DNA from: a virus | Taxonomy: Duplodnaviria > Caudoviricetes | Direction: 5' to 3' (one strand) | IMG/VR virus record: IMGVR_UViG_3300025735_000004 | Coordinates: 17,710 to 81,709 of that record | Length of the DNA stretch: 64,000 nucleotides | In this document: positions 3,937 to 10,639 of the stretch, piece by piece | Layout of the letters: each line of letters begins with the position of its first letter | Numbering within the stretch: position 1 is the first letter of the stretch | Notes under the pieces: model-generated | The model's input: only the letters and a program-made list of their open reading frames with translations | The model's database searches: none | Told to the model about the DNA's origin: nothing | Made by a program: the position numbers and the translations under genes

Positions 3937-4210
3937 GGGGAGACCTATGCAAAAAATCAGCTCGGCCGTCTTCGGTTGGGTGAAACACTCGCGGCCTTGG
4001 GTTAAAGACTAGGCGAGGATCGCGAAAAAATTTTGCGTTGCTTCAAAATCGAGGCAACGGAGGCCTCAAAAGCGGGTGTTTTACCCCCTCTTCGAAAGTT
4101 TTTTTAACTATTTTTTCGGTTGTACTGGGAACCTTTTCTGACAAGGCTTTGACGCCAGAGATTGTCCGACAAAACAGGGCGTTTTGATGGCACTTTTGTG
4201 AATGTCAAGG

Positions 4211-4244
4211 GGGGTAAAGACGGAGGCTTGGTTGTCTTTACCCC
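4211..4244. promoter_or_regulatory. Inverted repeat (possible operator)
   Basis: ggggtaaagac N12 gtctttacccc. Confidence 0.45.
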
Positions 4245-4275
4245 TCAATGCTCCGTATCCTATTGACCATAAACG

Positions 4276-4305
4276 AAAAAGCCCCCGCTGTTAGGCGAGG
4301 GCTTT
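4276..4305 (-). terminator. Intrinsic terminator-like hairpin (U-tract on minus strand, possibly bidirectional)
   Basis: aaaaagccccc gctgttaggcg agggcttt. Confidence 0.55.
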
Positions 4306-4308
4306 ACG

Positions 4309-4880
4309 GACTGGCGGGTGTTACAAGCACCTCCAGTCAAGGTCTCGGGGTATCTCTGCTTAGCTGGCCGGGGTACGAGACCGGGTCTAAAAAGTATACG
4401 CGAACATTGATCGCGTGTTCAACCATGCCCGCCTCATCCCCGTAACCCTTCCATTGCGCGTCTGGATCAAGATGGGGCGTTCGTTCGCCTATTGGGCCGC
4501 AGTGCGTAAAACCACCCACAAGGGGATCTTCTCAGGGTGGTCGGTATAGCCGGGAGGTACGAACCTGGAAACAGGTCGGGAAGGCAATGGCAGGGCGGCG
4601 TATTACCCAGACACAGGCGCCGTCGACTGTCCCAAAACCTACCCCCGCCGTGCGCCGAGAAGGGCCGAGGGCGCTTGTAACGCATAACCTCGAAAGCGCG
4701 GAACGCCAGCTGGGAGTGGGAGCCGGGAAACCGGGATTTCCCCATTGCGTGGAGTTGTGTGGAAGGCCTTTTTTCAAGGGCTGGACGCAGGGGCTCGCAC
4801 GCCAGTGGGAGCAAAAAGGGGGCCAGCTTTAGGCGGCCCTCACAAGCGTTTGTACCCCCCGCCTTGGGGTACGAATAGGG
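4309..4880. ncRNA. Candidate structured non-coding RNA
   Basis: No convincing ORF. Consecutive hairpins (4309-4338, 4341-4382, 4511-4541) and two stems capped by GAAA tetraloops (4563-4576, 4723-4734). Confidence 0.35.
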
Positions 4881-4992
4881 ACTGGAACGATTTAAATAAT
4901 ATTACGTTCAGCATCTGTTCAGACTTGTATGAGAAATGTAACGTGCTGTGCCCAGTACCAGGACAAATCCGAAAACAACAAGGAGAAGGACA

Positions 4993-5187
4993 ATGTTGAT
5001 ACTGACCCGCCGTATTCACGAAACCATCATGATTGGCGACGACATCCGCGTCACAGTGCTCGGTGTCAGCGGCCTGCAGGTGCGCGTCGGCATTGATGCG
5101 CCCAAGGGCGTCGATGTCCATCGCGAGGAAATCTACAACCGCATTCAGGCTGAAAAAGCTGATCTCGCAAAACTGGACCTAGACTGA
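4993..5187 (+). CDS. csrA: Carbon storage regulator CsrA/RsmA homologue
   Basis: [52 protein letters not shown] is the canonical CsrA signature; aggagaagga RBS. Confidence 0.95.
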
Positions 5188-6684: not shown

Positions 6685-7134
6685 ATGGGCAAATGCACGA
6701 CCTACTACGACGAACTGCGCTTTGACACTCGCGACCCCGAGTTCACCCATGTGTATTGCTTCATCCGGGGCGAGGGCGATTGCCCGTTCATGGTCCATGG
6801 CTGGCATCACAAAGCGTTCCCCAAGACGCTCACCACCCACGAAATTTTCTCCAACATCTGGACCGGGCAGACCGACCCGATGACCTGGGAGCGCGAAGCG
6901 CCGCGGGCCGTCCTCACCCCGGCGATCTACAACCCCAACGATCGTGTGCCGGTGCCGGTCGAGCAGTTGCAGGCCTGGCGCGACAGCTTTACCGCCTGGG
7001 ACACCACGGTGTCCGGGGAAATGGCCGAGCAGATCACGGCGCACCTCACCTCGGTGACCCAGTGGGACAAGATTTGCCCGCACTGCCGCGCCCAGGACAT
7101 GTGGAACCAGCACCAGCGGGAACAAAAGAATTGA
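6685..7134 (+). CDS. Hypothetical protein with C-terminal CxxC
   Basis: 149-aa ORF, aaggag RBS. Confidence 0.65.
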   Translation: MGKCTTYYDELRFDTRDPEFTHVYCFIRGEGDCPFMVHGWHHKAFPKTLTTHEIFSNIWTGQTDPMTWEREAPRAVLTPAIYNPNDRVPVPVEQLQAWRDSFTAWDTTVSGEMAEQITAHLTSVTQWDKICPHCRAQDMWNQHQREQKN

Positions 7135-7589
7135 GCCAGGCGCCTGCCACTTGGGCCGCTGAAATGCAGGCCCTGCAGGACCAGATCGAGCAGCTGACGC
7201 TGGATCTGGAGTGTGCGCGGCGCAACGAGGCCGCCGCCACCTACTGGTATGGGCAGGATGACGGCGTGCGGGGGGCTTGCCTTCGCTGGGAGGAAGCGCT
7301 GACCAACCTGATCCCCAAGGACGGCACGATGCGCGAGCCGCTGGAATCGCTGTATCGCCGCACCGAAGTGCTGCGCCTGGATCTGGCCGCCGCCATCAGC
7401 GACATCGCCTTCCTGCGCGGCCAGCGCGATGGTTACGCCTCCTTGTTGGCCAGCGCCCTGCAGACCATCAACGCCTACTGGGTGCCGCACAACGAGGCGG
7501 CCGAGACGCTTCGCACCGAGTTAATGCGGCGCCTGCTTACAGTCGTCAAAGCAGCCTGGGAGGCGCGGGTGGCAGGAGCCCACCCGTGA
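7131..7589 (+). CDS. Hypothetical coiled-coil protein
   Basis: TTG start overlapping the previous stop; heptad-like helical pattern. Confidence 0.6.
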   Translation: MSQAPATWAAEMQALQDQIEQLTLDLECARRNEAAATYWYGQDDGVRGACLRWEEALTNLIPKDGTMREPLESLYRRTEVLRLDLAAAISDIAFLRGQRDGYASLLASALQTINAYWVPHNEAAETLRTELMRRLLTVVKAAWEARVAGAHP

Positions 7590-7813
7590 GCCCGAACTAC
7601 GCGATCGAGCAGCGCCTGCGCCTGATTGATTTCCTGCTGGAGCACTACGGCCACGTCGGCCGCCCCGAGCTGTGCGACTTCTTCGGGATCAGCCTGCCGT
7701 GCGCCTCGCTGGACCTCACGATGTACCGGGAGGCCAACCCGGGGAATGCCGACTACGACTTCAAGAGCAAACGCTGGGTGCGTGCGGCGACCTTCAAACC
7801 TCGATATTCCTGA
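7586..7813 (+). CDS. Stand-alone CapW/BrxR-type winged HTH domain protein (no WYL domain), copy 1
   Basis: EQRLRLIDFLL...G.V.R.EL.DFFGIS.P.AS.DL..Y....PGN..YD......V....FKP matches the N-terminal wHTH of CapW/BrxR repressors; GTG start at 7586. Confidence 0.8.
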   Translation: MSPNYAIEQRLRLIDFLLEHYGHVGRPELCDFFGISLPCASLDLTMYREANPGNADYDFKSKRWVRAATFKPRYS

Positions 7814-7847
7814 CCGACAAGACAACTATAAATAGAAGGAACTGTTC

Positions 7848-8120
7848 GTGGAGAAAGACAAGGTTGTGGTAGGCCTGACCCCTTGCGGGCGGCCGAAGTT
7901 GACCTACGCCATGGAGCAACGCATGCGCTTCATCGACTTCCAGATATTCCACTACGGCCACATTACGCGCCGCCATCTGATCGACTTTTTCGGCGTGACC
8001 TCGGCCACTGCGACCCGCGATTTCGCCCTGTTCATCGAGCTGTACCCGGGCCAGATCAAGCTCCACACGATGACCAAACTCTACGTCCCGACCAAGCAAT
8101 ACCAGCGCATTTTCCCCTGA
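7848..8120 (+). CDS. Stand-alone CapW/BrxR-type winged HTH domain protein, copy 2
   Basis: EQRMRFIDF...YGHITRRHLIDFFGVT.ATATRDF..F.EL.PG; paralogue of 7586-7813. Confidence 0.8.
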   Translation: MEKDKVVVGLTPCGRPKLTYAMEQRMRFIDFQIFHYGHITRRHLIDFFGVTSATATRDFALFIELYPGQIKLHTMTKLYVPTKQYQRIFP

Positions 8121-8151: not shown

Positions 8152-8442
8152 ATGGCAACGCGCATCTGGAAATGGCCCCTGCAAATGACCACCGAACAAA
8201 CCCTGGAACTGCCGATCGGCGCGGTATGGCTGGACGTGCAGCTGCAGGGCGGCGTGCCGCAGATTTGGTGGCTGTGCAATGCCAACGCGCCACTGGAACC
8301 GCGCCACTTCGCCATCCACGGCACCGGCAACGAGATGCCGGACGACCCGGGCGAGTACCTGGCCACGTTCCAGACCGGCGCCTTCGTGTGGCACCTGTTC
8401 GAAGTTTTCACCCCCACCATCGAGCAAAGGAATGAAGCATGA
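8152..8442 (+). CDS. Conserved phage protein (DUF7352-like)
   Basis: IWKW.L...LP.GA..L.VQ.Q...P.IW...F.I.GTG...YL.TFQ.G.FVWHLFE. Confidence 0.65.
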   Translation: MATRIWKWPLQMTTEQTLELPIGAVWLDVQLQGGVPQIWWLCNANAPLEPRHFAIHGTGNEMPDDPGEYLATFQTGAFVWHLFEVFTPTIEQRNEA

Positions 8443-9107
8443 ATACTGAAATTCTCGCGATACTCGACCGCAGCGGTTCCATGTTCAACATCGCGGAGGA
8501 CGCGATCGGCGGCTACAACACCTTCCTCAAGGATCAGCAGGCGATCGAGGGTGAAGCGCGGATCACCGTCGTGCTGTTCGATGACCAGTATGAGCTGCTG
8601 TACGCCGCCACGCCGTTGGCCGACGCCCAGCCGCTGACCGCGCAGACCTTCGTGCCCCGCGGCGGAACGGCGCTGATGGACGCGATCGGGCGCACCCTGC
8701 AGGTCGAAGGGGCACGGATCGCGGCCGAGGGCTGGGCCGAGAAAGTCATCGTCTGCATCACCACCGATGGTGGCGAGAACCAGAGCAAGGAATTCACCGC
8801 GCCGATGGTGCGCGAACTGGTCACGGCGGCCGAGGCCAAAGGCTGGGCGTTTGTGTTCCTCGCGGCCAACCAGGATGCGTTCGCCACCGCCAGGTTCTAC
8901 GGCATGAGCGGCGCCCACGCGCAGACCTTCGCCGCCAACAGCGCCGGGGTGGGGGAGGCTTACGCCAGCATCAGCAACGTCACGCGCAGCCTGCGCACCG
9001 GGCCGGAGGGGGCGGCGGCGGGTGCGCTTGAGTTACGCGATACGCTGGCCACGGCGCAGGCCGGGGTCACGCCGAAGAAGAAAGCCAAAGCGCAAAAAGG
9101 TGCGTGA
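8439..9107 (+). CDS. Stand-alone von Willebrand factor A domain protein
   Basis: MIDAS motifs ILDRSGSM, GGTAL.DAIG, ITTDG.EN.S. Confidence 0.9.
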   Translation: MNTEILAILDRSGSMFNIAEDAIGGYNTFLKDQQAIEGEARITVVLFDDQYELLYAATPLADAQPLTAQTFVPRGGTALMDAIGRTLQVEGARIAAEGWAEKVIVCITTDGGENQSKEFTAPMVRELVTAAEAKGWAFVFLAANQDAFATARFYGMSGAHAQTFAANSAGVGEAYASISNVTRSLRTGPEGAAAGALELRDTLATAQAGVTPKKKAKAQKGA

Positions 9108-9346: not shown

Positions 9347-9640
9347 GTGAGCGGGACCAAAGCATCACCGGAAATTGAATACCTGGGGCAGTTCATGTAC
9401 GTCCAACGCAAGGCCCTGCGCCTGACGTTGGACGAAGTGGCCACAGGAGCCGGCACGTCGAAATCCTACCTGTGGGAGATCGAGCACGGGCAGGCGTCAC
9501 CCTCGTTCATGTTGGTCGCCCGCTTGTGCCAGGTCTTGTGCCTGGACATCGGCGGGCTGGCCGCTGGATCGTTGAAAGTGGCTGAGCTGTGCGGGGAGGT
9601 CGAGCAAGATCCGGGGCGGCTTCATCGCGCCGGGGCTTGA
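9347..9640 (+). CDS. XRE-family HTH transcriptional regulator
   Basis: RKALRLTLDEVA...GTSKSYLWEIEHGQASPS...RLCQVL. Confidence 0.9.
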   Translation: MSGTKASPEIEYLGQFMYVQRKALRLTLDEVATGAGTSKSYLWEIEHGQASPSFMLVARLCQVLCLDIGGLAAGSLKVAELCGEVEQDPGRLHRAGA

Positions 9641-9729
9641 TTGACCCGACAACGAGCGAAGCGAGGCGTCAGGCTTTTCGGGGCCTCTGAAAACACCCCT
9701 ATATTAAGACTAAGAAGGGAAATCGCTAC

Positions 9730-10012
9730 AGCCCTTTGTTTTCAAGGGGGTCAGTCTTGAATTTCTGGACTACTTGTTTAGAAACTCAAGACTTTTTACT
9801 TGAATAAATGGCCATATCCAAGTGTTATGTATAGAATTTGTGCTTAAATTCAACGAAACCGTTTTGAAGTTCAAGTGATTGGTCTTGAAATTGCCCCATG
9901 ATTTCAACGTTTGCGCTGAGAAGTTCTAACAAAACGGTGCGAAAACACCCCCCAAATTCAAGAGTGGGGGCCAGAATACCCCAACGAATCCAAGAAATGA
10001 CTGGAATTCAAC
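9730..10012. other. Putative replication origin (AT-rich, repeated short TTCAA/TTGAA boxes)
   Basis: About a dozen (A/T)TTCAA(G/C)-like boxes in both orientations in AT-rich DNA directly upstream of rep. Confidence 0.5.
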
Positions 10013-10639
10013 GTGACTGAGAAGAAAAAGTCCTACTACACCTCCCGGGCCGACGTGGTGCCCACTCGACATAACCCATGGGCGGGTGAGTTGGCACACA
10101 CGATCAAGAAAGGGAACAAGGTCACCGGCTTTGCCAGCTCCAAGCACGCCTTGGTGAACCAAGCTACCGGCGAGGTGATGACGGACGACATCGCCCTGGT
10201 GGGGGTGCGCAAGGTAGTGGACAAGGAAGAGTTCATCAAGTTTTTCGGGGCAGGGATCATGGAGGTGTTCGAACTGACCACCCCGGCCAAAGACGTGTTC
10301 AAGGCGATCCTGAACGTGTACTTGGACCAGAAAAACCAGCCGGATCAGCTGTACCTGAACTACGACGAAATCAAAGAGATTTATGGCTACGGAAAGTCGC
10401 CCTCGACCTACTACAACGGTCTGAACGAACTGATCGTGAAAGGCTTCTTGGCCCCGGTGCAGTTCCGCGAAAGCCACTACTGGGTCAACCCGAACCTGTT
10501 CTACAAAGGCGACCGTATCCGTATCGTGCGCGAGTACGTGCGCGCCGGGACCAAGGCGGCCAAGCAGGTGGAGAAGGAGAACGCCGCGCTGAATCAGCTG
10601 GGGCTGCCGCTCGATGGCCCCATCATCGACACGGTATAG
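10013..10639 (+). CDS. Plasmid-type replication initiator (RepL/RepA-like winged helix)
   Basis: VNQATGEV...VDKEEFIKFF...AKDVF..IL...STYYNGLNELIVKGF...YWVNPNLFYKGDR pattern of RepL-family initiators. Confidence 0.75.
   Translation: MTEKKKSYYTSRADVVPTRHNPWAGELAHTIKKGNKVTGFASSKHALVNQATGEVMTDDIALVGVRKVVDKEEFIKFFGAGIMEVFELTTPAKDVFKAILNVYLDQKNQPDQLYLNYDEIKEIYGYGKSPSTYYNGLNELIVKGFLAPVQFRESHYWVNPNLFYKGDRIRIVREYVRAGTKAAKQVEKENAALNQLGLPLDGPIIDTV

Follow-up and report, generated by a model that had tools for sequence, protein, structure and literature searches.

A tandem pair of phage genes for stand-alone winged-helix proteins of the CapW/BrxR type

Two winged-helix genes without a WYL domain

Two adjacent genes, ORF-A and ORF-B, were analysed in a 64,000-nucleotide stretch of viral DNA (the window) that covers bases 17710-81709 of the IMG/VR virus record IMGVR_UViG_3300025735_000004. 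The record is 81,709 bp long, has direct terminal repeats (DTR) and is rated 100% complete; the pair is phage-borne, as the initial annotation had proposed. Both genes lie on the + strand. ORF-A (7586-7813, 75 amino acids) encodes a stand-alone winged-helix domain (WHD) of the WHD_BrxR family with an 'AS-x-D' (CapW-like) recognition helix; ORF-B (7848-8120, 90 amino acids) encodes a second such domain, which has an N-terminal arm and whose recognition helix, 'ATATRDF', is invariant.

ORF-A starts with a GTG that overlaps the TGA of the upstream gene (GTGA) and is preceded by AGGAG at 7574-7578. ORF-B also starts with GTG, preceded by GAAGGA at 7835-7840. The N-terminal arm of ORF-B (GLTPCGR..LTYAMEQR) is conserved among related phages; its start is therefore GTG 7848 and not ATG 7911. 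Orthologues called by other gene-calling pipelines have the same starts and the same lengths (73-75 amino acids for A, 88-91 for B). The two genes had been described as adjacent paralogues that end right after a shared domain, and this was borne out: the proteins are 42% identical across 62 residues (BLASTP, E 4e-19), and because of this E-value the motif that they share lies far beyond chance. Among five related phages, the ratio of nonsynonymous to synonymous substitution rates (dN/dS) was 0.16-0.53 for ORF-A and 0.12-0.47 for ORF-B. Both genes evolve under purifying selection.

Using phmmer against the PDB, we found that both ORFs matched only CapW (7tb5, 7tb6, 9c5g) and BrxR (7qfz, 7t8k) over residues ~5-92, with best E-values of 9.5e-11 for ORF-A and 3.8e-8 for ORF-B. 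A profile of 59 stand-alone sequences matched the same five structures at E 5.6e-21 to 4.5e-11 and nothing else at 1e-3. The precomputed annotation PF26109 (WHD_BrxR) was found on every homologue (46-97% identity) in a 5.8-billion-protein collection, and an Atlas shape search led to clusters with PF26109 in 100% of their members. The Pfam, PHROGs, PADLOC and NCBIfam libraries gave no usable match for either ORF, because the PF26109 model was missing from the Pfam copy and not because the proteins are orphans. The AlphaFold2 (AF2) model of ORF-A, with a predicted local distance difference test score (pLDDT) of 92, contains helices at residues 5-21, 26-33 and 37-50 and strands at 55-58 and 63-66, namely the long N-terminal helix, helix-turn-helix (HTH) and two-strand wing of WHD_BrxR. 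In Foldseek, this model was matched to 7QFZ, 7TB6, 9C5G, 7TB5 and 7T8K with template-modelling scores for the query (TMq) of 0.87-0.96 and root mean square deviations (rmsd) of 0.6-1.1 Å, and the next winged-helix families were five orders of magnitude worse (E>1e-2). Clearly, ORF-A and ORF-B are genuinely homologous to the winged helix at the N-terminus of CapW/BrxR (PF26109, WHD_BrxR); on this assignment, made in the initial annotation, the profile check and the fold agree.

In CapW of S. maltophilia (Sm CapW), mutating R32 or S42/Q45/S47 abolishes DNA binding (PMC9122588). The aligned residues are R26, S36, C39 and S41 for ORF-A and R, T, T and T for ORF-B. Equivalents of R32, S42 and S47 are kept, and Q45 is replaced with Cys in ORF-A and with Thr in ORF-B. 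The columns R9, I13, G21, R25, F32, D42, Y46, N53, K61, Y63 and F69 are invariant and common to stand-alone and full-length proteins. As judged from the alignment, the residues that contact DNA are retained in both ORFs.

The WYL model PF13280 gave nothing at E<=1 in ORF-A, in ORF-B or in any of the six frames of the complete 81.7-kb phage, with control genomes positive; with the same model, WYL was detected in three long relatives, L041, L054 and L071. The dimerisation domain WCX/BrxR_CTD is absent, as no sequence extends past the WHD and the next gene, DUF7352, begins at 8152. A frameshifted WYL remnant downstream, in the initial annotation the mark of a simple pseudogene, was looked for in all frames and not found. 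The pseudogene explanation was ruled out by the stops at the domain edge, the dN/dS values and the WYL-free frames.

The upstream helical gene and the stand-alone family

The gene immediately upstream of ORF-A (7131-7589, + strand, starting at TTG 7131 or ATG 7164) encodes a protein of ~141-152 amino acids, here called N-dom, which is all-helical in its AF2 model at moderate confidence. It matched no Pfam, PHROG or Atlas family, and an Atlas feature search returned unnamed viral clusters only. In the related 84-kb contig L016, N-dom and an ORF-A-type WHD form one continuous frame, and the same fusion occurs in four independent protein clusters (P0037, P0038, P0039 and P0050). N-dom was found only in this phage lineage, with a head gene next to it in every locus where downstream DNA was read. 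Two related phages, L058 and L063, lack ORF-A and have an ORF-B-type head right after the helical gene. Because ORF-B-type heads are present in all related phages, including these two, ORF-B counts as the constant component of the cassette, which consists of N-dom, one or two heads and DUF7352, the last located downstream of the head gene(s) in 7/7 related loci examined.

On sequence grounds, ORF-A is better seen as a C-terminal domain that has split off from a two-domain protein. Because it is coupled to N-dom here and fused in frame with it in related phages, ORF-A is without WYL yet not partner-less. The term 'sensor-less', applied to both proteins in the initial annotation, thus holds as regards WYL and WCX, neither of which is present in either protein, but ORF-A is coupled to a helical protein or, elsewhere, fused with it. 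This protein, N-dom, is probably the partner of ORF-A, a candidate dimerisation module that would replace pairing via WYL and WCX. The fusion offers a natural experiment in the pairing of a BrxR-type head when these two domains are absent.

At the junction of the two genes, we prefer translational coupling of ORF-A to N-dom via termination-reinitiation at GTGA as the likely arrangement. An inverted repeat read from the sequence, GGGTGG-N7-CCACCC (7567-7585, + strand), holds the Shine-Dalgarno sequence of ORF-A in its loop and abuts the GTG start; it was the top-scoring inverted repeat upstream of ORF-A in our scan, and the hairpin may gate the coupling. A -1 frameshift joining N-dom and ORF-A was also considered. 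ORF-A lies in the -1 frame, which is open upstream, but no slippery heptamer is visible, and this candidate was rejected.

Stand-alone heads form most of the close relatives. When 1.84 billion cluster representatives were searched with the profile, 1824 matched; among the top 50 of these, 42 were proteins of <=130 amino acids and none was full-length, and proteins of 290-305 amino acids with an N-terminal head appeared only from E ~1e-15. In IMG/VR, relatives were found in 57 loci on contigs of 6 kb to 315 kb, and 53 of the 57 stop within 9 residues of where the domain ends; of the other four, three encode full-length WYL proteins and one is ambiguous. The same profile run on 400 bacterial genomes of one class gave 48 matches in 45 genomes, 46 of them in frames of 277-428 amino acids. 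One of the two short matches lies inside an integrase-bounded element of Dechloromonas. Matches were also found in 345 plasmid records, and among the 30 listed, all but 3 were annotated as WYL domain-containing or as a regulator. Only two of 50,697 cultured phage records matched by tblastn, namely those of Stenotrophomonas phage Sonora and a Yersinia jumbo phage. The Sonora protein, gp088 (CPT_Sonora_088), has 75 amino acids, is 59% identical to ORF-A and is annotated 'hypothetical protein'.

Full-length regulators were seen alongside the short ones. The viral contigs L041, L050 and L054 carry wHTH-WYL proteins (wHTH, winged helix-turn-helix) in frames of 289-306 amino acids, with WYL E-values of 6.5e-7 and 2.4e-14 in the two scanned; complete WYL regulators thus also occur on phage or prophage DNA. 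In Dechloromonas sp. CZR5 (L071, 1468-3205), a full-length BrxR-like WYL regulator of 301 amino acids is encoded just upstream of a DEAD/ResIII helicase gene and divergently from an ADP-ribosylglycohydrolase-like ORF. The arrangement may represent a defence locus under WYL control, in a genome that also holds a WHD-only gene in an integrated element.

In a quick maximum-likelihood (ML) tree, which is weakly resolved with many forks open and supported by the Shimodaira-Hasegawa-like approximate likelihood ratio test (SH-aLRT) only, nearly all full-length heads fell into two well-supported clades apart from a diverse stand-alone grade. The stand-alone group also has a signature in helix 1, R11, L16, H19 and Y20, compared to E/A, R, W/F and E in full-length proteins. 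From the counts, the tree and this signature, the short form therefore represents an old phage-restricted branch and not recent truncations or captures. ORF-A and ORF-B, as far as sequences can tell, belong to this large, almost purely phage-borne stand-alone WHD_BrxR branch. Recent capture from a host regulator was ruled out on the same tree, within the limits of its resolution. No paper on phage-borne WYL-less BrxR/CapW heads was found in the literature searched. The fusion partner, the constancy of ORF-B, the recognition-helix classes described below and the counts of architectures in bacteria, plasmids and viruses are new.

The conserved helix 1 surface that is peculiar to the stand-alone family would suit a role at the protein level. 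A free head could dock on host wHTH-WYL-WCX dimers or form mixed head pairs, thereby poisoning or re-programming host WYL regulators. CapW and BrxR are domain-swapped dimers in which WYL touches the wHTH of the other protomer and the heads lie side by side (PMC9122588), an arrangement in line with such contacts. However, the DNA-contact residues are all conserved, which a pure protein binder would not need, and a poisoned repressor would induce defence, an outcome hardly useful to a phage. We consider such interference very improbable.

Recognition helices, operon setting and possible roles

The recognition helices of viral members fall into two classes: P[QC]AS-x-D, in which x is hypervariable and whose pattern is common to three CapW structures, and A[TQ]ATRD[FL], which is nearly invariant. 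ORF-A is of the first class and ORF-B of the second, and the helix of ORF-B is invariant across diverged phages. The two classes should be regarded as a lead only. The only other tandem WHD-only pair seen, at 3750-4225 of L033, an unrelated 107-kb viral contig, encodes copies with 64% identity, which resemble each other more than they resemble ORF-A or ORF-B; their recognition helices, PQATRDF and PQASLDF, represent one of each class.

Gene neighbours conserved across lineages were limited to DUF5131 (5 loci) and an MvaT-like gene (4 loci). DUF5131, of the phage Gp37/Gp68 family, directly follows the WHD-only gene in L019, L007, L021, L038 and L047 (Pfam E 2e-87 for L019). In L003 (3626-5924), and likewise in L004, L036 and L037, the genes encode an integrase, a 75-amino-acid ORF, a WHD-only protein (73 amino acids), an MvaT-like protein and an Arc-like protein; these are Pseudomonas-type temperate phages of 37-48 kb. 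The L003 MvaT-like protein matched MvaT_DBD at E 1.4e-5, just under the cut-off. In this cluster, a homologue of xenogeneic silencers is grouped with other small DNA-binding genes. In the Dechloromonas element, the WHD gene is followed by an AlpA-like HTH gene and then an integrase gene. Because WHD genes keep such regulatory company in L003 and Dechloromonas, a regulatory function of ORF-A and ORF-B is supported.

The phage encodes primase, helicases, a family-A DNA polymerase, an SbcC-like protein and tail proteins. No close cultured relative was found by megablast against phage records, and its DNA polymerase shares only 33-36% identity with the Vibrio and Pseudomonas phage enzymes. ORF-A and ORF-B are part of a long rightward operon of small genes that opens with a phage-encoded csrA homologue (4993-5187, + strand; Pfam CsrA E 2.3e-25). 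The gene order is N-dom, ORF-A, ORF-B, DUF7352 (8152-8442) and a vWA-like protein gene (8439-9107; phrog_7371 E 1e-59). We regard the operon as an early one, in which the WHD pair occupies a middle position among small accessory ORFs. The csrA gene is preceded by ~1 kb of ORF-poor DNA (3940-4950). PADLOC found no defence system near the pair, the genes being located in a phage operon and not beside a defence operon. Autorepressors of the Aca type are encoded by small HTH genes that close anti-defence operons, and they bind inverted repeats in the promoter of the operon. In a comparison with these, no known anti-defence gene was identified beside ORF-A/ORF-B, whose neighbours are without known function, and the operon start yielded no inverted repeat.

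The operon setting and the recognition helices bear on an anti-defence role, in which the heads would sit on host operators of the CapW/BrxR type and stay there when single-stranded DNA (ssDNA) or DNA damage frees the host repressor. CBASS, BREX and other WYL-controlled operons would then be held at basal level, and two paralogues would serve two operator classes. The homology is specific to the head of defence regulators with its DNA-contact signature kept, the sensor has been strictly lost, and the family is borne almost purely by phages. The pair lies in an early operon among accessory ORFs, near another host-regulator homologue (CsrA); in another phage lineage, an MvaT-like silencer gene follows the WHD gene; and both tandem pairs, in the window and in L033, combine one 'AS-x-D' (CapW-like) helix with one 'ATRD' helix. 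Elevated BREX levels can overpower a phage inhibitor (10.1101/2025.11.13.688357), so that under some circumstances blocking induction could pay, e.g., in prophage induction.

Several results are difficult to reconcile with occupation of host operators. WYL mutants of CapW that repress constitutively, and so are functionally equivalent to an uninducible repressor, protect against phage lambda like the wild type (PMC9122588), and BrxR derepression is unnecessary for blocking initial infection (10.1101/2025.11.13.688357), although it primes survivors (same reference). Because of these results, locking the operon off may gain an infecting phage little. Host operators vary by system (PMC9122589), yet the ORF-B helix is invariant across diverged phages. 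In the quick tree, the stand-alone family is old and separate and does not track host regulators. In Dechloromonas, the one genome with both forms, the short and full-length proteins do not have the same DNA-reading residues, and the Sonora head is no nearer to the CapW of S. maltophilia than to that of P. aeruginosa. On balance, we regard such an anti-defence role as unlikely. More doubtful still is its general form, in which phage heads kept over a long time and in many lineages would act as uninducible competitors, holding operons under WYL control (those of CBASS, BREX and other defence islands and perhaps regulons of DNA damage) at basal level at the very moment when ssDNA would free them, with two helix classes for two classes of operator and with a helical partner for WYL-independent pairing.

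Downstream of the cassette, an AT-rich gap (9640-10639) contains palindromes of the TTCAAG-N8-CTTGAA type; there are 8 matches (<=2 mismatches) in the window compared to 1.5 expected, and 4 of the 8 are located at 9785-9976. Right after the gap, a 208-amino-acid protein is encoded that is 35% identical to plasmid RepL. The gap and the RepL-like gene look like an origin with its initiator.

Small winged helices often act as architectural, recombination or replication accessory factors. The pair could likewise have a DNA role away from promoters, as an architectural or recombination-directionality factor or as a replication/partition accessory protein. In integrating elements, the gene adjoins an integrase gene and an Xis-like HTH gene, and in this phage the RepL-type initiator and the palindrome-rich AT-rich region lie 1.6 kb downstream. 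But the family is also present in phages without a nearby integrase (e.g., Sonora and jumbo contigs), and its lineages have no gene neighbour in common. RepL binding would better account for the TTCAAG-N8-CTTGAA boxes, and the characterised relatives are all transcription factors. We consider a role of this kind improbable.

Our leading explanation, held with somewhat less than even confidence, is that ORF-A and ORF-B are constitutive DNA-binding regulators that serve the programme of the phage itself. As products of the rightward early operon, they would be ligand-independent, sequence-specific DNA-binding proteins that, like BrxR and CapW, most likely use helix 3 and the wing to bind (pseudo)palindromic sites of ~20-25 bp. 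Without the WYL/WCX sensor and dimeriser, ssDNA could not release DNA binding, and pairing would come from elsewhere: for ORF-A, probably from the upstream helical protein; for ORF-B, from WHD-WHD contacts or the same helical partner. We infer that the proteins bind DNA as dimers and repress, and that their job is most likely constitutive control of promoters of the phage's choosing, namely those of early/accessory genes of the phage itself or of a co-resident element. Recruitment as phage regulators, an alternative raised in the initial annotation, is at least as likely as action on host operators, which that annotation had put first.

Some observations weigh against the proposed control of phage promoters. 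No recurrent perfect palindrome of the form 6-N(0-14)-6 was found in the 81.7-kb genome, and no candidate operator inverted repeat near ORF-A/ORF-B or at the start of the operon. Across 58 loci, inverted repeats upstream of WHD-only genes were not enriched (score 5.4, compared to 5.3 in control windows). A position in the middle of an operon, among small accessory ORFs, is untypical of an autoregulated phage repressor, and the sporadic occurrence in cultured phages (2/50,697) is more like that of accessory host-takeover cargo than that of a core circuit. The model of the fused N-dom-WHD protein (pLDDT 72; predicted template-modelling score, pTM, 0.38) has low inter-domain confidence. With these points considered, we rank regulation of the phage's own programme first and retention on host operators second, followed by non-promoter DNA roles and protein-level interference.

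Comparison with known WYL regulators

Among the known switches of bacterial defence islands, WYL repressors such as BrxR, CapW and their relatives are the commonest, and the heads bear on how phages handle inducible expression of defence. The head-only family could be a new class of transcription-level counter-defence, or an evolutionary source or sink of the heads of these regulators; either would be informative. A cultured model exists in Sonora gp088, and the host species of this phage carries a characterised CapW-CBASS system.

CapW (7TB5 from P. aeruginosa PA17, 7TB6 from S. maltophilia and 9C5G from R. leguminosarum) is a wHTH-WYL-WCX repressor of CBASS with the same winged-helix head. 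The best phmmer E-values of both ORFs (9.5e-11 and 3.8e-8) were against 7TB5. Compared to 7TB5 and 7TB6, identity was 33-39% and the rmsd 0.6-0.7 Å, and the profile matched 7TB6 at E 5.6e-21. The recognition helix of ORF-A, PCASLD, resembles PQASLD of P. aeruginosa CapW. BrxR (7QFZ from E. fergusonii; 7T8K/7T8L from Acinetobacter) is a regulator of BREX and defence islands, and 7QFZ was the best structural match (TMq 0.96). ATATRDF of ORF-B resembles SVATQDF of E. fergusonii BrxR, whereas the base-reading SRQQ motif of Acinetobacter BrxR (PMC9122589) is absent from both ORF-A and ORF-B. Unlike CapW and BrxR, the two phage proteins have neither the WYL sensor nor WCX and are about a quarter of the length. 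Their genes are located in the middle of a phage operon instead of divergently from a defence operon, and no palindromic operator was found at their own promoter.

The mycobacterial proteins PafB and PafC, which have retained WYL and WCX, are ssDNA-sensing activators of transcription. They form a tandem wHTH-WYL-WCX heterodimer of the wider WYL-regulator family, with heads that are likewise adjacent paralogues (PMC9122588 and general background). By analogy, an A-B heterodimer is conceivable as an idea. Unlike in PafBC, however, both sensors are missing in the phage pair, and L058 and L063 do without ORF-A.

The nearest counterparts are the other stand-alone WHD_BrxR proteins, e.g., Sonora gp088, which have the same architecture (73-99 amino acids, with a stop at the domain edge) and are annotated as hypothetical. 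Those proteins are mostly encoded by single genes without a conserved neighbour, whereas here the heads form a conserved tandem pair preceded by a helical partner, which is fused in sister phages.

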